From positions 32,001 to 96,000 of the forward strand of contig CAWHHI010000016.1 of the NCBI GenBank assembly GCA_963829055.1: a stretch of 64,000 nt of DNA, given 5' to 3'. The notes beneath the pieces are model-generated. The model was not told where the DNA came from, searched no databases, and was given only the letters and a program-made list of their open reading frames with translations. The translations under genes were made by a program, and so were the position numbers. The stretch comes from an uncultured Gemmatimonadaceae bacterium. GTDB taxonomy: Bacteria > Gemmatimonadota > Gemmatimonadetes > Gemmatimonadales > Gemmatimonadaceae. This document shows positions 32,270 to 58,790 of the stretch, in pieces. Within the stretch, counting starts at the first letter, position 1, and every line of letters begins with the position of its first letter.

Positions 32270-32457
32270 CGGCGTCTCAGACGAAACGTGCGAACGGATT
32301 CATCTGATCCAACGGATCGACTCCGATCCCGGGAATGGCTACATCGCTCGTGACTCTTTTGTTTTTTGAAGGTGTGCCAGCGAGACGCTCTGTCTCGCTC
32401 ACGGAATCAATCCGCTAGATCCGACGCATCCGTTCGTTCCTTTCGTCTGAGATGCCG
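32270..32457. repeat. MITE-like element with ~30-bp imperfect terminal inverted repeats; partial copy at 7040-7085
   Basis: CGGCGTCTCAGACGAAACGTGCGAACGGAT versus ATCCGTTCGTTCCTTTCGTCTGAGATGCCG. Confidence 0.75.
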
Positions 32458-45807: not shown

Positions 45808-46301
45808 GCGTCGCCGAGTCGCGGCGCGACGAGATTCTTCGCTGGCTCGACGAGGTGAAGGATCCGGAGGTGCCGGTGCTGAGCATCCGCGAGCTGGGTG
45901 TGCTGCGCGATGTGGAGGTGTCCGACGACGGCGTGGTGGTCGTGATGACACCGACGTACTCCGGCTGCCCCGCCATGCACGCGATGGAGACCGAGGTCGT
46001 GCAGACGCTCGCGAGCCACGGCGTGCCTAACGCGCGCGTCAGGACGGTGTACTCGCCGGCCTGGACGACCGACTGGATGTCGGACGAGGCGAAGGCGAAG
46101 CTCGAAGCGTACGGTATCGCCGCGCCCGATCGATTGGAGTCGGACGATCTCGTGCCGCTGCGTCGACGCGTGGCGGTGCGGTGCCCGTACTGCCAGTCGG
46201 TGAACACGATCATGCGCAGCGAATTCGGATCGACGGCGTGTAAGGCGATCCTGTTCTGCAACAGCTGCCACCAACCCTTCGAGCAATTCAAGGCCATCTG
46301 A
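45804..46301 (+). CDS. paaD: Phenylacetyl-CoA epoxidase subunit D
   Basis: DPEVPVLSI, TPTYSGCPAM, PAWTTDWM, CPYC, FGSTACKA, PFEQFK. Confidence 0.95.
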   Translation: MSVAESRRDEILRWLDEVKDPEVPVLSIRELGVLRDVEVSDDGVVVVMTPTYSGCPAMHAMETEVVQTLASHGVPNARVRTVYSPAWTTDWMSDEAKAKLEAYGIAAPDRLESDDLVPLRRRVAVRCPYCQSVNTIMRSEFGSTACKAILFCNSCHQPFEQFKAI

Positions 46302-46325
46302 ATGGGCACGCGGAGGCGTCCGATC

Positions 46326-46893
46326 ATGCGCCCACCAACGAGAGTGCCTAACGGGCTCAGGGTAGTGGCGGCCCTCTCGATCGCCACTGGCGTTGCGGCG
46401 TGTTCCGGTGGCGAGCGCTCTCGTGCGTCCGACTCGGCGACGAAATCGGTGGAGGCCGTACCGCCGTCACCGACCTCCGGGGCGGCGTCCAGGCCCGCGG
46501 GTGACAGCGTCGGCATCATCAACCGCACCGGTGCCGTGCTGCTGTCCGTCGCGCGCGACTCCGTGTCGATGGGATTCTCGCCGGCAACGATCGCCAAGGT
46601 CCGACGTGAGACGGATACGACGGGAAGCGGCTCGGGATTCGGTGCGATGATCGAACGCACCGTCAAGTCCGGCGTGCAGACGATGCTCTCGACGCGCATC
46701 ATGGTCCCGCTCGCGGACATCGAGAACGTGCGGTACGAGGACGGCACCATCAAGTTCGACTATCGCACGCGCGCCGCGAGGCATGAAGCTCGAGGATATC
46801 AAGATCGACAACGAACCGGCGCTGCAGTCGTTCCGCGAGGAAGACGCGAGGACGTTCGTCAGCGCGGTTCAGGCACGGCTGCCAGCGAGGTAG
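46326..46893 (+). CDS. Hypothetical lipoprotein; frameshift near 46775
   Basis: Lipobox VAAC; second frame MKLEDIKIDNEPALQSFREEDARTFVSAVQARLPAR*. Confidence 0.65.
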
Positions 46894-46923
46894 CGCCTCC
46901 GCGGTCCTCGCTCCGGCCTCGCC

Positions 46924-47625
46924 TCACAAGGTTCGCGCACGCTCGATCTCCGCGAGGTTCGGCAGCAGCTTCGCCTCATCGAGCAGCGAGACGATCCGCT
47001 TTCTGATCGAGCGGAGCAGCGGCAGCCGCGCAATCTTGAACGTTGCCACGATCAGGCCAATCGCCCCGGTTGAAAGCGCCACCGTGCGCCGGCCGTTAGG
47101 CGACCGGTCGTGAAGGAAGAATAGCAACAGGCCCATGTGAAGCGCCCACAGCGCGACTGGAGCGAGTCGTGCGACGTCTTCGGGGAGATGCTCGTCGCCG
47201 AGCGCAATGGAGAACGCCGCCATGCTTTCGAGCCGGTGCTGGCGCAGCGGTGCGCCAAAGAATGAAAGCGGGTGCGTCGGATCGCCAGCGTAGCGGAGCA
47301 GGGCCCCCATGAGCGGCCGGTCGTCGCGGAGGATCTCGATCTTGCTGTGCAGCGCGATGGCGAGCCTGGCGGCGAGCGGTTTGTCGTTGGTCGCCTCGTT
47401 CGCGACCCGCCGGGTGTGCTCCTTCGAGACGCGATCGTAGTACGCGAGCACGATGGCGTCCTTGCTGGGGAAGTAGTGATACGCGGCGCCGAGCGACATC
47501 TCCGCGGCGGCGGCAATATCGCGCATCGTGGTCGCGTCGAACCCCCGGCTCCGAAAAAGCGTTAGGGCGGCGTTGTAGATGCGGTCTCGGGTGTCTTCGC
47601 CCTTCGCGGTGACTGTTTTGAACAT
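46924..47625 (-). CDS. TetR/AcrR family transcriptional regulator
   Basis: TRDRIYNAALTLFRSRGFDATTMRDIAAAAEMSLGAAYHYFPSKD. Confidence 0.95.
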   Translation of the reverse strand: MFKTVTAKGEDTRDRIYNAALTLFRSRGFDATTMRDIAAAAEMSLGAAYHYFPSKDAIVLAYYDRVSKEHTRRVANEATNDKPLAARLAIALHSKIEILRDDRPLMGALLRYAGDPTHPLSFFGAPLRQHRLESMAAFSIALGDEHLPEDVARLAPVALWALHMGLLLFFLHDRSPNGRRTVALSTGAIGLIVATFKIARLPLLRSIRKRIVSLLDEAKLLPNLAEIERARTL

Positions 47626-47725
47626 GTTCAATATCGGAACGGCCGGATCATTCGTCAAGAGCCAATGTTGAACATGTTCAAGACATGAATTGAACGTGTT
47701 CAACTCAGTCTTTGAACACGTTCAA
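47618..47725. promoter_or_regulatory. Four 14-bp palindromic operators TTGAACRYGTTCAA, likely bound by the adjacent TetR
   Basis: TTGAACATGTTCAA at 47618 (overlaps TetR start) and 47668; TTGAACGTGTTCAA at 47690; TTGAACACGTTCAA at 47712. Confidence 0.85.
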
Positions 47726-47793
47726 TAACATGAGGCACGCGTCGCGTTGCATCACGGGAATGATTGGCGCCACGCTGCGGCGTTTAGATGGTG

Positions 47794-48314
47794 GCGCCGG
47801 GGTCGGTGAGAACTACGATGGCGCGGATGACGCAGAAACGGCCGGATCGACCAACCTGGCTACCCAGCGCACATTGGCTGGCGTCGACGAGAACTCACCG
47901 CGAAGGTGATTGGCGCGTTCTACGACGGTGTACAACACGCTCGGCTATGGATTTCGCGAAGTCCGTGTACACGCGCGCACTGGCGCTGGAACTGCGGCGG
48001 CGAGGCTTGCGCGTAGAGCGCGAGGTGTGGATCGCCGTGTACTACAAAGGCGAAGTCAGGTCGGCTCGCTATCGCATCGACATGCTGGTCGAAGGCTGCG
48101 TTGTGCTGGAGATCAAGGCGACAGTCGCACTGGCGCCAAGCGATCGGGACCAACTCCTGAATTACCTTCGCGGTAGCCGTCTCGAGGTCGGACTGCTCCT
48201 GCATTTCGGACCGCGCCCAACCTTCCAGCGCGTCGTCGCCGAGAACGCCCGATCGTGCAGATCCGGCCGTTTCCGCGTCTTCCGCGCCATCGCAGTTCCC
48301 ACCGGCCCCGGAGC
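47794..48314 (+). mobile_element. Candidate element: GxxExxY gene bounded by 55-bp inverted repeats
   Basis: 47794-47848 and 48260-48314 are reverse complements at 49/55 positions; mobility is inferred only. Confidence 0.6.
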
Positions 48315-48405
48315 GATGAGCTGGCCTCAGGTGGAGAGCAGCGCCGCAATCCGATCCGCGATTCGGTCCGCGTCCGGGAGCACGGCCTCGAGCAGCGACG
48401 GGTGA
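47818..48405 (+). CDS. GxxExxY family protein (PD-(D/E)XK-like nuclease fold); 5' part split by indels, ends approximate
   Basis: Reconstructed ELTAKVIGAFY.VYNTLGYGFRESVYTRALALEL..VEREV..YYKG..YRIDMLVEGCVVLEIKA..DQLLNYL..EVGLLLHFG. Confidence 0.88.
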   Translation: MARMTQKRPDRPTWLPSAHWLASTRTHREGDWRVLRRCTTRSAMDFAKSVYTRALALELRRRGLRVEREVWIAVYYKGEVRSARYRIDMLVEGCVVLEIKATVALAPSDRDQLLNYLRGSRLEVGLLLHFGPRPTFQRVVAENARSCRSGRFRVFRAIAVPTGPGAMSWPQVESSAAIRSAIRSASGSTASSSDG

Positions 48406-50459
48406 TAGGGCATCGGCACATCCGCGACCGCCAGACGGTCCACCGGAGCATCCAAAGCCCAGAAAGCCTCACGCCCCACCACCGCCGCGATCTCGGCACC
48501 GAAGCCCGCCGTGATCGTGTCCTCGTGCACGATCAGGCAGCGCGACGTTTTCCGCACCGAATCGAGCACCGCCTCGCGGTCCCACGGCGCAACGGTCCGC
48601 AGATCGAAGAGCTCCACCACGCCGTCGCCGAAGCGCGCGGCCGCTTCGGCGCAGCGGTGCACCATCGCGCCCCAGCTCACCACCGTGATGTCCTTGCCCT
48701 CGCGCAGGCGCGCGGCCCTGCCGAACGGCAACACGTAGTCGTCGCCGGGATAGCGCGCGCTGCCGTCGCTCGTCATGAGCAGCGATCGGTGCTCGAAGAA
48801 GATCGTCGGATTGCGACTGCGCATCGCCGCTCGCAGGAGCCCGACGGCGTCCGCCGCGTTCGACGGGATCGCCACCTGCCAGCCTAACGCGTGCGCCCAC
48901 GTCACCTCGGCGCTCAACGAGTGCCACGGGTCGCCGACGTCCTTGCCGTACCCGCCCGGCATCCGCACGACGATCGGCGCGCAGAAGCGGTTCGCCGTGC
49001 GCCAGCGCATCGTGCCGCAGTTGTTGAGCTGCTCGTGTGCGGGGTCCGCGTACTTGCGGAACTGGATCTCGGCAACGGGGACGAGGCCGGCGATGGCCAT
49101 GCCGACGGCACGGCCAATGATGCCTTCCTCGGACAGGCTCGTGTCGAACACGCGAGCGGCGCCGAACTGCTTCTGCAGGCCCTCGGTCACGAGGTGCACG
49201 CCGCCCTTCACGCCCACGTCCTCGCCGAACACCGCGACTTTCGGATTTCGCTCGAGCTCGGAGCGCAGCGTGCGCTTGATCGCCTCCGCGAATCGCACGA
49301 CCTCGCCGCTGTCGCTCGGGACGTCGGTTCCACCGAGCGCGTCACGCTCCTCGTCGGAGAGACCGCCTAACGGCACAGTGTCGCCCGGCTGGACGGGCTC
49401 CTCGTATACGAAGCGATGAATCGTCGCGGGGTCAGGCGCCGGACGCGCACGCGCGCCGTCCAGTCCCCGCTTCACGTCGCGCGCGACTTCTGCCTCCAGA
49501 TCAGCCCAGTCCGCCTGGTTCATGAACTCCGGCACCAGGTGCTCCCGGAGACGCGGAAGCGGATCGCGCGCGCTGTCGGCGGCGATCTCGGCTTCGGTGC
49601 GGTAGCCCTTCTGGTTGTCTGGCCCCGAGTGGGAGGAGAGCCGGGGGACCGTGAGGTGAATCAGGGCGGGGCCGACGCCGGAGCGGACGTGATCCACCGC
49701 ATCGCCTAACAACCGCGCCGACTCGTCAGGATCGCACCCGTCGCCATCGCGGATGAGCAGGTTGGCAAAAGACGCCAGGTTCCGCGCGATGTTGCCGCCC
49801 GGAGTCTGCATCTCACCCTTGACCGAGATGCCGAGTCCGTTGTCCTCGATGTAAAACAGCATCGGGAGCTTCAGCGTCGTCGCCATCGTGAGCGCGGACC
49901 AGAAGCCGTTCGTCGCCACCGACGCTTCGCCACCAAGAGCAACCGCTATCGCGCCGCGGTATGACGCGTCGCCGAGCACGTCGCGATGATACGTGATGGC
50001 CTGGGCCCAGCCGGCGGCGGGCGTGTACTGCGATCCTACGTCGCCGGACATCGGCAGGACGACGGTGCCGTTGCGGTTAGGCAGGTTGCAGACGACACCG
50101 ATATCGCGGCCATCGCTGAATCCGCCGGAGCGACCGAGCGGGCTGGCGAGCGCGTCCTCGATCGAGAGGCCGATGGAGAGCAACAGCGGGCGCGATCGGT
50201 AGTACGCTCCGACGCCATCGTGCGCGTGGTCGAGCATCGATCCCAGAATCGTCTGCGCCACGTCGTGGCCGCGCGCCGAGAACTGGTAGAGCACGAGGTG
50301 CTCGCGCGGGACGGTCGCCCGGTTGCGATTCGTCGTCTCCTCGGCGTCATCGAGCGCGCGCGAGACGAGCGAGTTGTACGCGATGGCGCGCCAATCGATG
50401 GAACGACTGGTCGCCTTGGGACGAGCGGATTTGGCCTTGGCAGGGGAGCGAACGGGCAT
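48327..50459 (-). CDS. 2-oxoacid dehydrogenase E1, fused alpha+beta (branched-chain type)
   Basis: YQFSARGHD, ThDP region GGEAS..IEDNG, SHSGPD, GEDVG.KGGV, FDTSLSEEGIIG, AEIQF, IFFEHR. Confidence 0.92.
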   Translation of the reverse strand: MPVRSPAKAKSARPKATSRSIDWRAIAYNSLVSRALDDAEETTNRNRATVPREHLVLYQFSARGHDVAQTILGSMLDHAHDGVGAYYRSRPLLLSIGLSIEDALASPLGRSGGFSDGRDIGVVCNLPNRNGTVVLPMSGDVGSQYTPAAGWAQAITYHRDVLGDASYRGAIAVALGGEASVATNGFWSALTMATTLKLPMLFYIEDNGLGISVKGEMQTPGGNIARNLASFANLLIRDGDGCDPDESARLLGDAVDHVRSGVGPALIHLTVPRLSSHSGPDNQKGYRTEAEIAADSARDPLPRLREHLVPEFMNQADWADLEAEVARDVKRGLDGARARPAPDPATIHRFVYEEPVQPGDTVPLGGLSDEERDALGGTDVPSDSGEVVRFAEAIKRTLRSELERNPKVAVFGEDVGVKGGVHLVTEGLQKQFGAARVFDTSLSEEGIIGRAVGMAIAGLVPVAEIQFRKYADPAHEQLNNCGTMRWRTANRFCAPIVVRMPGGYGKDVGDPWHSLSAEVTWAHALGWQVAIPSNAADAVGLLRAAMRSRNPTIFFEHRSLLMTSDGSARYPGDDYVLPFGRAARLREGKDITVVSWGAMVHRCAEAAARFGDGVVELFDLRTVAPWDREAVLDSVRKTSRCLIVHEDTITAGFGAEIAAVVGREAFWALDAPVDRLAVADVPMPYHPSLLEAVLPDADRIADRIAALLST

Positions 50460-50694
50460 GCGGGGAAATTAGCTGGGAGACCGATACGGCGGGAACAGGG
50501 AACAGGGAACGGGGAACCGGGAACACCAGCGGCAGCTGGTGGCTGGTCGCTCGTGCTGGTCGCTGGTCGTGGCCGGTCGTTCCGACCTGTAGTGGTGCTT
50601 CGGATAGACGGCGTGCAGCTTTGCTGGCGATTCGCAACCGCGACCGGCCTACCCCTGACGCGCGAGAGGCGCGGCTGCGATGGATCTGAACGAA

Positions 50695-52999
50695 ATGCAA
50701 CCGAATCGTCGACAAATCCTACGTCGCGCGCTACCACTCGCTGCGGTCGTCGCGTGTGCCGCAGCGTACACCGGCACGATTGGCAGAGCGGACGCCGGAC
50801 CAGCTGGCGCGGTCGCGCCGGACTCCGCGCTGCTCCAGCGCATGCTGAACGCCGAGGATTCCCGCGTAAGTGACTCCGCGTCCCTCGCGCCGCTGTTCGA
50901 GGGAATGCGCAGCGCCGACGTCACGACGCGCCGCATCGCCACGCGGGCGATCGGGCGGCTCGAGCGCAGCGACTACATGAGCGTCCTCGAGCCGATGCTC
51001 ACCGACCCGTCGCCTGCCGTTCGCGCCGAGGCGGTGAACGCGTTAGCGCAGATCGCGCGCGCGAGCGTCGTGAATGCGCCGGCCAGCGACGAGTCGCGCA
51101 TGCGCCTCGCCATGAGTGCGCAGGGATTGATTCGCGGTCTGCTCGCTGGCGAGAGCGATCCAGTCGTTCGAGGCAGCATAGCGCGTTCGCTGGGGCGACT
51201 CCCATACCCGAGCGAGGAAGTCGCTCGTGCCGCGGCTGAGTCGATCGCGTCGATCACGGATGGGATGCCAAGCGACGGCGCGCTGGCCCGCGAACCGTGG
51301 TTCGGCGTGGTGCACGGGATCGACGACCTTCTCCGTCGCTTTCCCGGAGTACGCACCGCGCCGGCGGTACAGCGCATCGCGGCGCTGCCTCGCGTTCCCA
51401 CCGTCGCGAACGCCGGTTCTACGGGCTCCACGAGCGACAGCGGATGGTCGCGAGAGACGAACGTCATGCTCGCGGCCGTTCGGGGACGAGTCCTCGGCGC
51501 CGCGGTCGGCACGGCGAAGGCCGTCGATGAGGCGACGGCACGCAGCGTCGGCGCGCGTTTCCTCAGCGATTTCGGCGACGCCGATCCGCAGGTTCGACGT
51601 CAGGTCGTGGCCCTGCTCGCGGTCGCGGGGGCCGTTGATGAGTCGTCCCGTGCACGAGTCGTGACCGCCGCGCTCGGCGATCCATCGTTCAGCGTGCGAT
51701 TCGAGGCCGTTCGTGCGTACGCGCGGCGGCACAGTACCGGGTGTGCGCCGCTCATCACGGCGACCCGCGACGCGAGTGCGCACGTGGCCATCGCCGCGAT
51801 CGATGCACTGGCAACGCCGTGCGACTCGTCCGGCGCGGCTGTTGTTCGGCTCGCGCAGCTCGTGCGAGACCTTCCCCGTACGGCGACAGCGCGTTCAGGA
51901 ACGCGGGGAAGTTGGCACGCCGGCGCCCACGCGCTCGTCGCCCTCGCGCAGCTGGCGCCGGATTCGGCGCGCGCGTCAGCGTCGCGCCTCGCGAGCCATC
52001 CGGTGTGGCAGGTTCGCATGTACGCGGCTCGCGCGGCGGGTGAGCTCGTAGACACCGTCACGCTCGCGAAGCTCGCGAGCGACACGACGGACAACGTGCG
52101 AGACGCCGCGGTCAACGCACTTGCGGCGTTGATTCGGCCGCCGCGCGGCACCAACAACCGTCCACGGATCGAGCGGACTGAGAAGATCGACTCGCTCTTC
52201 ACCGCGCAGTTGGCGCACACGGATCATCAGCTCGTGCTGGATGCCGCGAGGGCGCTCGAGGGCGGTCGATCGTCGGCGAAGCTGGCGGACGCTCTGTTCG
52301 CATCGCTCGCCCGGCTCACGGCGCGGCAGAGTGAAAACTCGCGCGATCCGCGAATGGAGTTGCTCGCGCGCATCGAGACCATGGTGGAGGGCAGCAACCA
52401 CGCGCTCGCGCATCCAGCCGTACCTGAGCGACTACGATCCGGCAATCGCGGAACGGGCCGCGCAGCTCCTTCGGAAGTGGGGCGTGCCGACGGCCGCGGC
52501 CACGCCGCGTCGGTTTCAACCCATGCCGGTCTCGCTCTCGGAGATGGGTCGACTGCGGAACGCGCGCCTGCGCGTCACCATGGCGCCCGAATCTGGCGGT
52601 GGGTCGTTCGAGATGCGGCTGCTCGTCGACGATGCACCCGCGAGCGTGAATCGCCTCGTCACGCTGGCGCGCATGGGCTACTACAACAAGCTCACGTTCC
52701 ATCGGGTGGAGACGAACTTCGTGATCCAGGGCGGCAGCCCCGGCGCGAACGAATACGTCGGCGCGCAACGCTTCATGCGCGACGAGCTCGGGCTCCCTTC
52801 GCACGAGCGTGGCACGGTCGGGATCTCGACTCGCGGGCGCGACACGGGCGACGCGCAGATCTTCGTGAACCTCATCGACAACTGGCGCCTCGATCACGAT
52901 TACACCGTGCTCGCGGACGTGGTGCGCGGGATGGACGTGGTGGACGCAATCCTGGAAGGCGACGTGATCGCGCGCATGGAGATCGTCGGGGGGCGCTGA
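50695..52999 (+). CDS. HEAT-repeat protein with C-terminal cyclophilin-type PPIase domain; frameshift near 52400
   Basis: Repeats DPSPAVRAEAVNAL, DADPQVRRQ, DPSFSVRFEAV; GYYNKLTFHRVETNFVIQGG, RGRDTGDAQIFVNL. Confidence 0.88.
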
Positions 53000-53109
53000 A
53001 CCAGGCTCGGTGGTGTGTGGTGGCGGTCGTGAGCGACTAGCTTTCGCGCGTCCGTGCGAGCGGCGCACGGGGTAGTAACGTCGCCCTCATGATTTCGGTC
53101 CGGACCTCC

Positions 53110-53898
53110 ATGTCATTCGAGTTCATCCTTTACGAAGCGGGCGAGGGCGTGGCGAAGATCACGCTCAATCGGCCCGACGTGCTGAACAGCTTCAACCGCC
53201 CGATGGCGATCGAGGTGCGTCAGGCATTCTCTGCCGCCGCTGCCGACAGCGACGTGCGCGCTGTGTTGCTCACGGGCGCCGGACGCGCGTTCTGCGCGGG
53301 CCAGGATCTCGCCGAGATGACCCCCAAGGAGGGGCCGGCGCCCGATCTCGGCGACATCGTCGCTCGTGGCTACAACCCGATCGTCCGTACGATTCGGCAG
53401 ATCGACAAACCGGTCGTGTGTGCGGTGAATGGCGTCGCTGCAGGTGCCGGCGCGAACCTCGCGTTCGCCTGTGACTTCGTGCTCGCGGCGTCCGAGGCGT
53501 CGTTCATCCAGTCGTTCACCAAGATCGGCCTCGTGCCCGACACGGGCGGCACGTTCTTCCTGCCGCGGACGATCGGAATGGCGCGCGCGACGGCGCTCAT
53601 GATGCTCGGCACCAAGGTGACGGCGGCGGAAGCGGTCGCGATGGGATTGATCCTTCGCGCGGTCGACGGCGGTACGTTGATGGACGAAGCAACGGCGCTG
53701 GCGAAGCAGCTCGCGACACAGCCCACGCGTGGGCTCGGCCTCATCAAGCGCGCGCTCAACGCATCGGCGACGAACGGTCTCGACGAGCAGCTCGCGCTCG
53801 AGGCGCAGCTGCAAGCGGAAGCCGGCTCGACGGCGGACTACCGCGAAGGTGTGAAGGCGTTCATCGAAAAGCGGCCGCCTGTGTTCGTCGGGCGTTAG
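53110..53898 (+). CDS. paaG: Ring-1,2-epoxyphenylacetyl-CoA isomerase
   Basis: LNRPDVLNSF, AFCAGQDL, YNPIV, VNGVAAGAGANLA, GLVPDTGG; paa context. Confidence 0.9.
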   Translation: MSFEFILYEAGEGVAKITLNRPDVLNSFNRPMAIEVRQAFSAAAADSDVRAVLLTGAGRAFCAGQDLAEMTPKEGPAPDLGDIVARGYNPIVRTIRQIDKPVVCAVNGVAAGAGANLAFACDFVLAASEASFIQSFTKIGLVPDTGGTFFLPRTIGMARATALMMLGTKVTAAEAVAMGLILRAVDGGTLMDEATALAKQLATQPTRGLGLIKRALNASATNGLDEQLALEAQLQAEAGSTADYREGVKAFIEKRPPVFVGR

Positions 53899-53906
53899 GT
53901 GAACCG

Positions 53907-55094
53907 GTGACCATGCTCGACAACAATGTCCTCGTCGGCGTGATCGGGGCGGGGGCGATGGGCAGTGGCATCGCGCAGGTCGCGGCTGTTGCGGGCCATC
54001 GTGTCGTAATCGCTGATGCCGATAGCAACGCCGTGGGCCGAGCGCGCGCAGGAATGGCGAAAGCGCTCGCTCGTGATGTCGAGAAGGGGCGACTGCCTGC
54101 GGGCGCGGACGCGAGTATCCTCGAACGCGTGACGTTCGTGGAGGGCGTGAGCGATCTGTCCGCGTTCGCCGACTGCGGCATCGTGATCGAAGCGATCGTC
54201 GAACGGCTGGACGCGAAGCGCGCGCTGTTCGCGTCGCTCGAGGCCGTCGTGAGAGACGATTGCGTGCTCGCGACGAACACGTCATCGCTCGCGATCGCCG
54301 CGATCGCTGGCGGATGCAAGCGACCGGAACGCGTGCTCGGCGTGCACTTCTTCAATCCGGCGCCGGTGATGCCGCTCGTCGAGATCGTGCCGTCGCTCGC
54401 GACGTCTCCCGACATTACGCGAGCCACGCGCGCGCTCGTCGATTCGTGGAAGAAGACAACTGTGCTCGCGAGCGACACGCCGGGCTTCATCGTGAACCGC
54501 GTCGCGCGGCCGTTCTACGGTGAGTCCATCCGGATGTTCGAGGAAGGCGTCGCCGACGTCGCGACGATCGATTGGGCGATGAAGACGATCGGCGGCTTCA
54601 GGATGGGCCCGTTCGAGCTGATGGATTTCATTGGGCACGACGTGAACTTCGTCGTGACGCGCAGTGTATTCGAAGGACTGTCGTTCGATCCGCGGTATCG
54701 TCCGTCAGTCACGCAGCAGCGGCTGGTGGACGCCGGTTGGCTGGGGCGGAAGAGTGGCCGGGGATTTTACGACTACCGCGACGGTGCCACGCCGCCGAGC
54801 CCGAGCGAGGATCGCGCGCTTGGCGAGCGGATCGTCGATCGGACGCTCGCGATGCTGGTCAACGAAGCGGTGGACGCGGTGCTGATGCGCGTCGCATCGC
54901 CAGCGGATATCGATCTCGCGATGACAAAAGGGGTGAACTACCCGAAGGGCCTCATCGCGTGGGGCGAGGAGATCGGCTTCGAAGTGATTCTCGACCGACT
55001 CGACGGTTTGCACTCCGAGTACGGCGAGGATCGCTATCGGCCGAGCGCGCTCCTGCGACGTTGGGTCCGCGATGGCAAGGGTTCGCTCGCATGA
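53907..55094 (+). CDS. paaH: 3-hydroxyacyl-CoA (3-hydroxyadipyl-CoA) dehydrogenase
   Basis: GAGAMGSGIA, EAIVE, ATNTSSL, HFFNPAP, PGFIVNR, MGPFELMD. Confidence 0.92.
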   Translation: MTMLDNNVLVGVIGAGAMGSGIAQVAAVAGHRVVIADADSNAVGRARAGMAKALARDVEKGRLPAGADASILERVTFVEGVSDLSAFADCGIVIEAIVERLDAKRALFASLEAVVRDDCVLATNTSSLAIAAIAGGCKRPERVLGVHFFNPAPVMPLVEIVPSLATSPDITRATRALVDSWKKTTVLASDTPGFIVNRVARPFYGESIRMFEEGVADVATIDWAMKTIGGFRMGPFELMDFIGHDVNFVVTRSVFEGLSFDPRYRPSVTQQRLVDAGWLGRKSGRGFYDYRDGATPPSPSEDRALGERIVDRTLAMLVNEAVDAVLMRVASPADIDLAMTKGVNYPKGLIAWGEEIGFEVILDRLDGLHSEYGEDRYRPSALLRRWVRDGKGSLA

Positions 55095-55587
55095 CGCTCG
55101 GATCGGCTCCGAACGCCGGCGATTCCGCCGACGCAGGGCAGCGGGTGGCCGAGCGTGTGGTGGCGGAGATGTTGGAGCACGATGAATTCAGTCGCTGGCT
55201 CGGTGTCGAGGTGACGCACATCTCACCTAACGCGGCGACTCTGCGCATGACGGTGCGTCCCGAGATGGTGAACGGGTTCGGCGTGTGTCACGGCGGGATC
55301 GCGTTCTCGTTGGCGGATAGCGCACTGGCGTTCGCGTCGAACGCACACGGGCGACTCACGGTGAGCGTCGAGAACAGCATCCGGTACCCGGCGCCGATCA
55401 TGCCGGGCGACGTGTTGACGGCTTCGGCTGTCGAGGAACGGGCAGGCGGGCGTCTCGCGTTCCTGACGGTGACGGTCAGGAAGCAGAACGACGACGTCGT
55501 CGGCCTGTTCACGGGAACGGTGTATCGCACGAGTCGCGAGCACTTCCCGACGACGAGACCGACGGCGGTACAGAGGGACAACGTTAG
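55091..55587 (+). CDS. paaI: Phenylacetyl-CoA thioesterase (hotdog); stop probably TAG 55585-55587 after a 1-nt indel
   Basis: DEFSRWLG, MVNGFGVCHGGIAFSLADSALAFASN, GTVYRT. Confidence 0.9.
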
Positions 55588-55600
55588 GCGAAACGAAATC

Positions 55601-56820
55601 ATGACTGACGCATACATCGTAGACGGGCTTCGAACGGCGATTGGCAGCTTCGGCGGCTCACTGTCGGAGTCGCGACCGGATGACCTCGCGGCGCTGACGA
55701 TCCGCAGACTCCTCGAGCGTCACACGGCGCTCGATCCGGCACGGATCGCCGACGTCGTGCTCGGCTGCGCGAATCAGGCGGGCGAGGACAATCGCAACGT
55801 CGCGCGCATGGCGCTGCTGCTGGCGGGGCTGCCGGTGACCGTGCCGGGCGAGACCGTGAATCGGCTGTGCGCGTCGGGGATGACGGCGGTCGCGTCCGCG
55901 GCGCGTGCTGTTCGCAACGGCGACGGCGACTTCTACATCGCGGGTGGCGTCGAGAGCATGACGCGCGCGCCGTACGCGATGTCCAAGAGCGCGAAGCCGT
56001 TCGGGCGCGACGTGGAGATCTTCGATACGAGCATCGGGTGGCGGTTCGTGAATTCGAAGATGCGCGACATGTATGGCATCGACTCGATGGGACAGACGGC
56101 GGAGAACGTCGCCGAGCAGTTCCACGTGTCGCGCGGCGATCAGGATCTGTTCGCGTGTCGCTCGCAGCAGAAGGCGGCGACGGCGCGCGCGTCGGGGCGA
56201 TTCGGAGTCGAGATCACGCCAGTGGAGCTCGCGCCGGCGAAGAAGGGCGGTGCGCCGCGGCAGTTCGCGGAGGACGAGTTCGTGAGGCCCGATACGACGC
56301 TGGAGGTGCTGGCGAAGCTGCGCCCGGCGTTTCGGACGGACGGAAATGGCTCCGTGACGGCTGGGAACTCGTCGGGGATAAACGACGGTGCGTGTGCGCT
56401 CCTGATCGCGTCGGATGCCGGGGTGCAATCGCTCGGCGTAAAACCGCTCGCGCGCGTGGTGACGTCGGTGGCCGTCGGCGTCGAGCCTCGTATCATGGGT
56501 ATGGGCCCGGTGCCGGCAACGCGGGCCGCGCTCGCGCGTGCCGGCCTGACGCTCGACGACATGTCGCTGCTGGAGCTGAACGAGGCGTTCGCTGCGCAGA
56601 CGCTGGCCTGCCTGCGGGAGCTCGGCGTGGCCGATGATGATCCCAGGGTCAATCCGAATGGCGGCGCGATCGCGTTAGGCCACCCGCTCGGGATGTCCGG
56701 CGCGCGCCTGCTGCTCACGGCCGCGCACGACCTGCAGCGCACGGGCGGGCGTTATGCGCTGTGCACGATGTGCGTAGGCGTCGGTCAGGGGACGGCGACA
56801 ATCCTGGAACGCGCGTTTGA
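55601..56820 (+). CDS. paaJ: 3-oxoadipyl-CoA thiolase (PaaJ/PcaF); stop probably TGA 56818-56820 after an indel
   Basis: GCANQAGEDNRNVARM, NRLCASG, TAGNSSGINDG, NEAFA, GGAIALGHPLG, MCVGVGQG. Confidence 0.93.
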
Positions 56821-56821
56821 G

Positions 56822-57245
56822 ATCATCGCGCCGGGGTCGGTGGGAACTGCGATTGGGCGGATCTGTACTGCGAAACTACCGGATACGGCTTTGCATTCAG
56901 GCATCACGGCGCCGGGGTCGGTGGGAACTGCGATTTTGCGGATGACACGGAAAACGGCCGGATACCGCTTTGCATTGACACTGGCTCTCGCCGGACTCTG
57001 AACTAATAGGAACGGCCGCTCGGGACGCAGGAGTCTCCCGAGCGGCCGTCCCCAAAAATCCGGCCCGCTGCGCGAGGCGCCGTCCCGAGCGCGATCGATC
57101 CTGCTTCTTCCGCGTCATCCGCGCGATCGCAGTTCCATTGGCCGGGCGCGATGATGCGTGGATGCAAAGCAGGATCCGGCTGTTTTGCAGTTCATCCGCA
57201 AAATCGTAGTTCTCACCGGCCCCGGCGCGACGATGCCTGGGATGC
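56822..57245. repeat. Four gene-less copies of the GxxExxY-flanking repeat (two direct, two inverted) around a hairpin
   Basis: Copies at ~56828-56897, 56909-56976, 57097-57156 (inverted), 57162-57238 (inverted); hairpin 57012-57049. Confidence 0.88.
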
Positions 57246-57254
57246 GAGCAACGG

Positions 57255-58790
57255 CTACCGCGCAGATCGCGGTTCCCAGAGAGAAATCTCCCCATCCCCG
57301 ACCGTAGCCGGCAGCGTCTCGACCTTCGTCCATCCAGTCTCGACGCGCTTCCACAATTCCGGCGACTCCACCTTGAACGCGCGCTCGAGGGTCGTCGCCA
57401 GCATCACGCGCCGATCCGCGAGCATCGTTGTGAGAGAGTCGAAGCCGGCCACCGTGCGCGTCGAATAGAATCGCCCCTTGCCCGCGAGGCCCAAGACGCC
57501 GCGTATAGAGATCGAAGCCGCGGTCCGCCTGGTACACCGCGACGAGCGCATCGCCCGGGCCTGACCGCGCGTTGAACGACGCGATCGTCGCCCGGAATGA
57601 TTGCTTCGGCACCGCGTAGTATCGCGGCAAGCCGAAGCCTAACGCGATCGCGCACACCAGGACAGCCGCCGCCGAGAGCGCCCCGTGAATCTGCGCGCGT
57701 CGTACGCCATCCGCGACGAGCTTCGACAGGAGCCGCGCTACGAGGTCGAGGCTCTCCACTGCGACGAGGAACGCCAGCGGCACGACCAGAATGAAGAAGC
57801 GCGGCGACGTGAGCCAACCCGCCACGACGACGAGCACGGCCATCATGCCTAACGGCAGCACGAACGATAGCACGATGAGCCAGCCGCGCCGCATGAGGCT
57901 CAGTGTCCCGATGGCCACGAGGACGAGGAATGGAACCGCCCCCACGAGCGCGAGCGACCCGAATCCCGCGGCGAGTCCGCGCAGCGTCTCCTTCAGGAAG
58001 TCCAGCGAAACGGGATTGAATCCCGTGCCCTGTCGCGTGTACGCCGTTCCCACGACGCGCAGCAGCTCGATCGCGGTGGGCCCGTAGATCACGAGCGACG
58101 CGACCGCCGTGGCGCCGAACGCCAGCGCCAGACGCCGAACGAGCGGCGCGACCGGCTCGGCACGTCGGCGCCGTACGATCACGAGCGCCGTCGCGAGCAA
58201 CACGTGCGTGATGATCACGAACGCGGTAATGATGAGCGACGTCAGCCCAAGCACCGCGAACACGGCGTACAGCGCGACCCACCTGCGCTGTGGCGTCGCG
58301 ATCAGTCGCCACAGGGCTCCGGTCGCGAGCACACAAAACAGCAGATAGGCCGAGTACCCGCGCGCGTTCTGCGAGAACCAGATGTGGTGATAGCTGACGG
58401 CCGTGAGGAACGCGACCGCCAGCGCCTGCCAACCCTTCATGATCGGCCGCGCGAGCCAGTACAGCGCTGGCACGGTGGCGATCCCGAACAGGACCGCCGG
58501 CAAGCGAATCGACCAGTCATGCTCGCCGAGCGCCGCCACGCTGACGCGCATGAGCAGCGAGTTCATGAGGTGCTGGTTCGGACTCGAGAACGTCCGCAGC
58601 AGCTCGCCGACCGTCACCGAGGTCGCGTACTGAAACGACCCGATCTCGTCGATCCACAGGTCGGAGTCGAGCCGGTAGATGCGCAGTGCCGCGGCGAGCA
58701 GCGTGATCAGGGCCAGAACGACGTACTCTCGAGTAACAGCCTCGCGCGCGCGACTGCGTCTCCGGCGAAAGCTCAGTCGCTATGCGCCAC
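57255..58790 (-). CDS. GT-C membrane glycosyltransferase (family 39/ArnT-like); frameshift near 57505, start uncertain
   Basis: LRIYRLDSDLWIDE, IRLPAVLFG, HIWFSQNARGYS; more than 10 hydrophobic helices. Confidence 0.85.

Follow-up and report, generated by a model that had tools for sequence, protein, structure and literature searches.

A GxxExxY nuclease gene and the pair of inverted arms that encloses it form one unit, a hairpin-armed cassette, and this gene is the sole coding member of a family of 70 loci that carry the same arms. Such an armed GxxExxY cassette is likely a kind of mobile DNA not described before. The explanation that we favour, tentatively and at somewhat under even chances, is that the nuclease recognises short words in its arms and drives the spread of the cassette and of its gene-less hairpin relatives. 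Throughout, the window is the whole stretch of 64,000 nucleotides that was analysed (C16:32001-96000), and G000 is the Gemmatimonadaceae genome that holds it, a 7.78-Mb assembly of 66% G+C. The features of the window are collected in Table 1.

Table 1. Position, strand and supporting evidence of the features described in the window.
Feature	Position	Strand	Evidence or remark
TetR-family regulator gene	46924..47703	-	context; cassette upstream of TetR start
Left arm	47794..47848	+	inner core of 9-10-nt words ACGAT..CGGAT..CAGAA..CCGGAT; sequence read directly
GxxExxY (PF13366/TIGR04256) PD-(D/E)XK nuclease gene	47818..48259	+	profile matches; homology through frames 1, 2, 0, 1
Right arm	48260..48314	+	reverse complement of left arm, 49/55
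E1 dehydrogenase / transketolase-like gene	48327..50459	-	context; its 3' end adjoined by the cassette
Gene-less family member	56825..57230	.	two direct arms, palindromic centre, two inverted arms
Direct arms of the 56.8-kb element	56825-56884, 56909-56963	+	nhmmer arm search
Inverted arms of the 56.8-kb element	57098-57152, 57174-57230	-	nhmmer arm search

Anatomy of the armed locus

A repeat search delimited two arms of 55 nt which are 89% complementary and lie 411 nt apart; together with the profile searches described below, it bears out the preliminary description, which had reported two inverted arms matching at 49 of 55 positions around one GxxExxY gene. A 20-nt word of the arm occurs 2 times in the 64-kb window against 0.04 expected. 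When the 541-nt unit is folded as RNA the arms form its closing stem, with a predicted energy of -279 kcal/mol (z -8.1) that none of 100 shuffles equalled. The cassette is set between genes for a TetR-family regulator and an E1 dehydrogenase, not inside a 23S rRNA helix, its right arm ending 12 nt short of the stop codon of the E1 gene (48327), and an Rfam search of window positions 46000-58500 at E up to 1 gave no match. Just upstream of the TetR start, at 47614-47730, repeated TTGAACA(N)GTTCAA palindromes are found which are kept in two other genomes of the genus (G003 and G004) and are probably an operator.

The enclosed gene and its reading frame

Profile searches with the enclosed frame gave matches to PF13366 (E 3e-25, 89.3 bits, cut-off 22) and TIGR04256 'GxxExxY protein' (92.7 bits, cut-off 35), so that by profile score the gene is a member of the PDDEXK_3/GxxExxY family. 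The D..E-I-K catalytic-type motif seen earlier is indeed in frame: the PD-(D/E)XK core D ... E-x-K reads RIDMLV followed by VLEIKA, and D88, E98 and K100 are invariant among 78 relatives. The nearest structures to the AlphaFold model (pLDDT 84.7) are nucleases of the Cas4/RecB type, matched weakly (E 6e-4, TM 0.43), while an 11-sequence profile found none of the sequences of solved structures at E up to 1 and a search of the ESM Atlas returned GxxExxY clusters only. In the accessible part of a PD-(D/E)XK survey, the function of PF13366/PDDEXK_3 is listed as 'Unknown' (PMC3424549). Literature searches for GxxExxY, the family accessions and the nuclease, MITE or hairpin context found no description of armed GxxExxY cassettes in the accessible texts.

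The likely start codon, ATG at 47818-47820 in frame 1, falls within the left arm. Judged by homology to intact relatives, 'ELTAKVIGAFY' is read in frame 2, 'VYNTLGYGFRE' in frame 0 and 'SVYTRAL' onward in frame 1. Three +1 shifts are hence required to read the gene through in the assembly, the first within 47854-47903 and the others at 47926 and 47962, rather than the one indel proposed before.

Contigs of four public soil or rhizosphere metagenomes were aligned to the locus; those of X1 and X7 span the gene and those of X2 and X3 cover only the arms and flanks. The X1 and X7 contigs are ~ 90-95% identical to the window across the gene, and that of X1 continues into the E1 gene. Both are without one base at 47926 and one at 47962, which are exactly the last two shift sites, and X1 is also without seven single bases in 47854-47903, seven being equal to one modulo three. 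Given these missing bases in X1 and X7, the gene is likely intact in close strains, and the frame breaks of the window may be assembly errors or indels, or else very recent decay. As to whether the ORF is intact, a point raised by the preliminary description, the frame is thus broken in the window itself and two of the shift sites are free of the extra base in X1 and X7. The metagenome depth is 40-240 over the arms compared to 4-5 over the unique parts, which means that the arms are repeated in the metagenome strains too. Elsewhere in the window, the frame of a small lipoprotein-like ORF (46302-46895) seems to switch near 46770, with a sensible C-terminus in another frame, and this may be a further sign of assembly indel errors.

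The gene-less repeat family

Iterated nhmmer searches with the arm found 201 arm copies at 70 loci in G000. At 63 of the 70 loci arms stand in both orientations, one to three per side with a period of about 78 nt, and at 56 a palindromic centre of 133-145 nt, containing a very conserved hairpin of roughly 21 bp, takes the place of the gene. A gene lies inside the centre (413 nt) at one locus of the 70, the GxxExxY locus of the window, in line with the layout of a gene-bearing unit plus gene-less copies that the preliminary description had seen; the next longest centres (267, 249 and 192 nt) contain a nested copy of another repeat. On the left arm homology ends exactly at CCGGAT and on the right at ATCCGG, hence the gene occupies the place of the standard centre. 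The four gene-less arm copies noticed before at 56.8-57.2 kb are real and their coordinates are confirmed; the palindromic centre between them is 134 nt long, with the conserved hairpin near 57009-57053.

The possibility that the gene-less centre (137 nt) is a remnant of the gene was considered and rejected, as a profile of the centre found no match in the gene-bearing interior with nhmmer at E up to 10. Simple deletion that leaves recognisable remains of the gene thus does not account for the gene-less elements. Of the 56 standard copies, the two most alike share 90.6% identity, and the similarity of arms is not higher within one element (0.78) than between elements (0.81). The gene-less copies are old, which counts against spread driven by the nuclease. 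No target-site duplication was seen by eye at 63 loci, where the element ends are ragged from partial outer arms, in agreement with the earlier statement that no clear target duplication is visible.

Several other repeats were observed alongside this family. A GTCATTCCGAGCG-type element is nested within the arm-family elements C12:71042-71426 and C4:284139-284497. At the same two places there are nested copies of a very large second family of palindromic repeats in G000, with the word GTCATTCYGAGC and 670 matches over both strands, which also occupies orthologous spacers of sister species. A second family of period-9 CGGAT arms (GAACGGATGCGNCGGATCNGCCGGAT) is present in the window at 32410-32432 (C16:64410) and has 28 other matches, for example C9:67919/68180; these arms are partly in inverted pairs about 260 nt apart and resemble the arms of another GxxExxY cassette type (C7:59374-59928). 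Finally, the heptamer GTTAGGC/GCCTAAC occurs 5630 times in G000 (0.72 per kb), about six times a rough base-composition estimate of 900, and is unlinked to the arm family. A link to attC sites and integrons was rejected on this heptamer, found within 80 nt of 12 of the 70 loci when random placement gave 8 on average and 19 at most; unlike integron cassettes, the elements show no enrichment of GTTRRRY core sites at their borders.

The cassette within the genus

Seven genomes of the genus (G000-G006) were compared, and no conclusion draws on G013, an unpublished genome. The cassette is found at the junction of the TetR and E1 genes in G000, G001 and G002, and 2.3 kb away in G003 and G004, between a gene that is paaD-like by sequence appearance, not by profile, and two other genes. 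In G004 the TetR-E1 spacer is 187 nt long and without any arm, that is, an empty site. Homology of G000 with this site ends near 47795-47797, where the left arm begins; on the right the alignment breaks into short pieces, so the clear insertion boundary is the left one. In G006 there is no TetR gene at this place and an internally deleted cassette keeps both arms. An empty site of the kind that the preliminary description had proposed to look for is thus found, along with a relocated and an internally deleted copy. The copy of G001 has lost one base near its 3' end, and in G004 a frame of 183 aa starts within the left arm and ends past the right arm.

The cassette proteins of G000 and G004 are 69% identical, those of G000 and G003 64%, those of G000 and G001 or G002 50-51% and those of G003 and G004 63%. 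For the E1 protein, the identity of G000 with the others is 82-85% (82% with G004) and that of G003 with G004 is 91%. These two sets of identities conflict, hence the history of the cassette differs from that of its neighbours, the cassette having been replaced, moved or converted.

Six of the seven genomes have a cassette with one and the same arm core, the seventh copy being cut off at a contig end, and species without the outer-arm family are among its carriers. The core GAAC..CGATGA..CGGATGA..CGGAAAC..CCGGAT is kept on both arms in six species. Furthermore, at 13 columns of the arms both arms have the same base within a species and this base differs between species (ATGGCG, ATGAAG, ATGACG, ATGATG).

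Copy number was counted with an 18-nt word of the outer arm at up to 3 mismatches, the reversed word serving as control. The count reached 180 in G000 (control 2), 152 in G004 (control 4) and 86 in G003 (control 4), compared to 10 in G001 (control 6), 11 in G002 (control 2), 10 in G005 (control 10) and 5 in G006 (control 2). The three rich species are those whose cassette has that outer arm. Elements without a gene but with the inner arms and the centre are found in G002, G005 and G006 as well, where the cassette is a different one, is truncated at a contig end or has an internal deletion. The family is therefore genus-wide and the 18-nt count covers one variant of it only.

Individual insertions differ between species. 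Two gene-less elements, one at 56.8 kb and one at C17:23962, are absent from both orthologous sites examined in sister species, the spacers of which hold other palindromic elements, including inverted heptamer arrays and a GTCATTCCGAGCG-type element; such spacers are hot spots of hairpin-element turnover. The TetR-E1 spacer of G003 (C772:4375-4908) contains a hairpin element that lacks a gene and has CAGGAT 9-mers in inverted orientation together with a GGGGAACGGCCG hairpin. At one and the same junction there is hence the cassette in G000, a gene-less CAGGAT element in G003 and nothing in G004.

Arms around other GxxExxY genes

The two other GxxExxY genes of G000 are also enclosed by inverted arms, in one case 27-nt AATCCTGYC arrays and in the other a degenerate CGGAT pair. 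The 27-nt arms belong to the third gene (C20:240670-241136); each consists of three 9-nt AATCCTGYC words, they lie 413 nt apart, and this gene as assembled has one frame shift near its N-terminus. With arms scored as present at a score of 16 or more, they were found at 13 of 26 testable GxxExxY loci of the genus, two further loci being too near contig ends, and one protein subgroup has no armed loci. Across phyla, 80 loci were fetched and 76 were testable; 56 of the 76 have arms compared to 0 of 72 displaced controls, and no shuffle scored above 14. Flanking inverted repeats, which the preliminary description had proposed to look for at other GxxExxY genes, are thus the rule in this family.

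These counts bear on the simplest alternative, that an ordinary GxxExxY gene has by chance been inserted into, or become flanked by, an unrelated genome-wide repeat. Other repeats do nest in the family, as the GTCATTCCGAGCG-type elements illustrate. However, the start codon lies within an arm, the cassette and its arm core are shared across the genus, even by species that lack the outer-arm family, and relatives in other phyla are armed when displaced controls are not. The armed relatives and the arm core kept across the genus already contradict chance nesting, which we regard as very improbable.

Most of these arms consist of 9-10-nt words of the CGGAT type. CGGAT itself is the commonest arm word in 36 of the 56 armed loci; in the others its place is taken by CTGAT, CAGAT, CCGAT, ACGAT or CGCGG, or no word dominates. 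Word type clusters on a tree of 78 proteins, from which 8 fetched loci were excluded for their stop codons (8 changes against a shuffled mean of 11.8, a value reached by 1 of 500 shuffles). No such clustering is seen for arm presence (16 changes against a shuffled mean of 15.3), and all arm states together cluster weakly (28 changes against a mean of 31.8, with 12 of 500 shuffles as low). Joint inheritance is by itself enough to give arm and gene a shared tree, which is a point against nuclease-driven spread. One well-supported clade unites a Saccharimonadota locus with Acidobacteriota loci, all of them with CTGAT arms, so gene and arms seem to travel together.

Repeat number was also compared with gene presence, as the preliminary description had suggested. 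The gene was found in 56 of 151 sampled Gemmatimonadota genomes. Triple-CGGAT arrays of period 8 were counted apart from those of period 9-10, and nine genomes have 6 or more triples of the latter kind; eight of these nine have the gene compared to 48 of the 142 others, a contrast which is no proper statistical test because the genomes are related and not independent samples. On the other side, G113 (100% complete) has 7 period-9-10 arrays and the gene was not found in it, period-8 arrays are abundant in genomes where the gene was not found, and arrays are few or absent in 48 genomes that do have the gene. G035, which belongs to another family, is a second lineage in which a single gene copy is accompanied by gene-less ones: the CACGGATT arms of its one cassette lie 414 nt apart, and the same word forms about 14 inverted pairs without a gene.

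Other armed genes and the passenger explanation

Armed genes in G000 are not restricted to nucleases. Among its PF05635 four-helix-bundle genes, 4 of 11 are armed at a score of 16 or more. These 23S-IVS-type genes (C17:131424-131983, C3:398215-398799, C16:412455-413022 and C15:4373-4959) have inverted heptamer arrays (CGGAGGG, GGGACTG, CCATCAG) or a 60-nt inverted repeat as arms, at an inner distance of 467-525 nt. Given that these proteins are not nucleases and share the armed layout, a nuclease is unnecessary for it. The single Y1 (PF01797) transposase gene of G000 (C20:35020-35346) is far from any arm of the family. It is itself bracketed by inverted arrays of the GAGTCTGACTC word within C20:33520-36846 and looks like an RAYT-type arrangement, separate from the nuclease cassette.

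Such observations suit an explanation in which arms and hairpins are spread by host replication or repair acting on hairpins, or by an enzyme encoded elsewhere, and GxxExxY is a cargo gene carried in the loop, perhaps one with a role in addiction, defence or repair, as the four-helix-bundle genes would be in arms of other types. In its favour, two unrelated protein families have the same layout in one genome, the Y1 gene also lies between inverted word arrays, gene-less arrays exist in genomes where no GxxExxY gene was found and the centre module is unrelated to the gene. Moreover, the different hairpin elements that one intergenic site holds in different species suggest a preference for site or structure independent of any gene. 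Against this, the coding sequence runs into the arms, the type of word tracks the protein clade, the gene is present in eight of the nine array-rich genomes, no other gene is found at any of the 70 loci, the sole PF01797 gene is not near any family arm and, as regards a defence gene, a search of the PADLOC defence families gave no match for 2 proteins. On balance we find it rather unlikely that the gene is a passenger.

Relation to known systems

The closest known kinds of element are REPIN/RAYT systems and ORF-bearing rRNA intervening sequences; the locus departs from the first in its enzyme and from the second in its location. As far as the accessible part of Bertels and Rainey 2011 (PMC3116915) describes REPIN/RAYT systems, the likeness consists in a gene flanked by its own repeat, an extragenic location, one cognate gene per repeat family and many gene-less copies in inverted, potentially hairpin-forming pairs. 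Unlike in these systems, the flanked gene is PF13366 with a PD-(D/E)XK fold and not a Y1/HUH transposase, so that the defining enzyme is absent. In addition, the cassette arms are 55-78-nt arrays of 9-10-nt words as opposed to REPs of about 20 nt, coding sequence and arms overlap, and a separate conserved centre of 137 nt is present in the gene-less copies. The history of the cassette in the genus is not vertical.

With MITEs and their parent insertion sequences the elements share short palindromic non-coding copies that have the same ends as one coding element, and gene-less insertions that are lineage-specific. They differ in that the cassette is without a DDE or other known transposase, a fixed terminal repeat or a visible target duplication, and in that the gene-less centre is no deletion derivative of the gene.

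In the accessible part of its description, the 23S rRNA intervening sequence of Coxiella burnetii is an ORF-bearing stem excised by RNase III (PMC4990558). Both it and the cassette have a small, decay-prone ORF in the loop of a long inverted-repeat stem and horizontal acquisition; the cassette is, in contrast, located between protein genes and not in rRNA, its ORF is PF13366 and not PF05635, and it has dozens of gene-less relatives. This identity of stem-plus-ORF design, which the PF05635 genes of G000 share, is one point in favour of an RNA-level module, in which the arms would pair in a read-through transcript, RNase III would cut the stem and the cassette would leave the host RNA, the arms making the insertion harmless and spread being a separate matter. 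The predicted stem is strong, and the elements mainly adjoin gene 3' ends, with 14 convergent, 21 tandem and 4 divergent cases among loci where both flanks could be called. However, the mismatches of the arms comprise 30 that are G.U-compatible in the sense RNA compared to 38 other transitions and 90 transversions. This absence of a sense-strand G.U bias, with mostly transversions, argues against selection on an RNA stem and favours a constraint at the level of the DNA or of the words. Furthermore, the arms within an element are only 78% complementary, a stem does not require conserved words of 9-10-nt period and the 70 dispersed copies are left unexplained. An RNA-level module is for these reasons decidedly unlikely.

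Proposed action of the nuclease on its own arms

Recognition of DNA words by the protein is the explanation that we prefer, because gene and arms belong together as a unit, the words have been kept across deep divergence and only this nuclease is encoded within the 70 loci. The GxxExxY protein would recognise the 9-10-nt words of the arms on DNA and would cleave at the hairpin. The cassette would then be copied or moved in cis by its own nuclease, and the gene-less hairpins, which may descend from a cassette, could be moved in trans by the same enzyme, in the way that RAYT transposases are thought to move REPINs. Several observations count against nuclease-driven spread: four-helix-bundle genes have such cassettes too, the centre is unrelated to the gene, target duplications were not seen, the copies are old, and G113 has arrays although the gene was not found in it. 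The original idea that GxxExxY spreads its own repeats hence keeps the layout, the cognate arms and the empty or relocated copies on its side, and is weakened by non-nuclease genes that share the layout and by arrays in genomes where the gene was not found.

Implications

The contribution of the window is the natural history of the cassette within a genus, together with a gene-less family of 70 loci. The genus provides a natural test set, with intact, relocated, internally deleted and absent copies and with gene-less families of very different size. If the protein does act on its own arms, PF13366, a large family without a known function, would have one, PD-(D/E)XK enzymes would be a third enzyme type driving small bacterial repeats, and much of the palindromic DNA between genes in soil phyla would have an explanation. 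In its widest form, which we hold to be doubtful, the idea is that GxxExxY proteins are the engines of a widespread and so far undescribed class of mobile DNA, with lineage-specific words, cutting of hairpins or cruciforms and gene-less populations, the ORF-bearing rRNA intervening sequences being a special case. Were this true, the gene-less populations would be subject to turnover at the 3' ends of genes and would mould the intergenic DNA of soil phyla.
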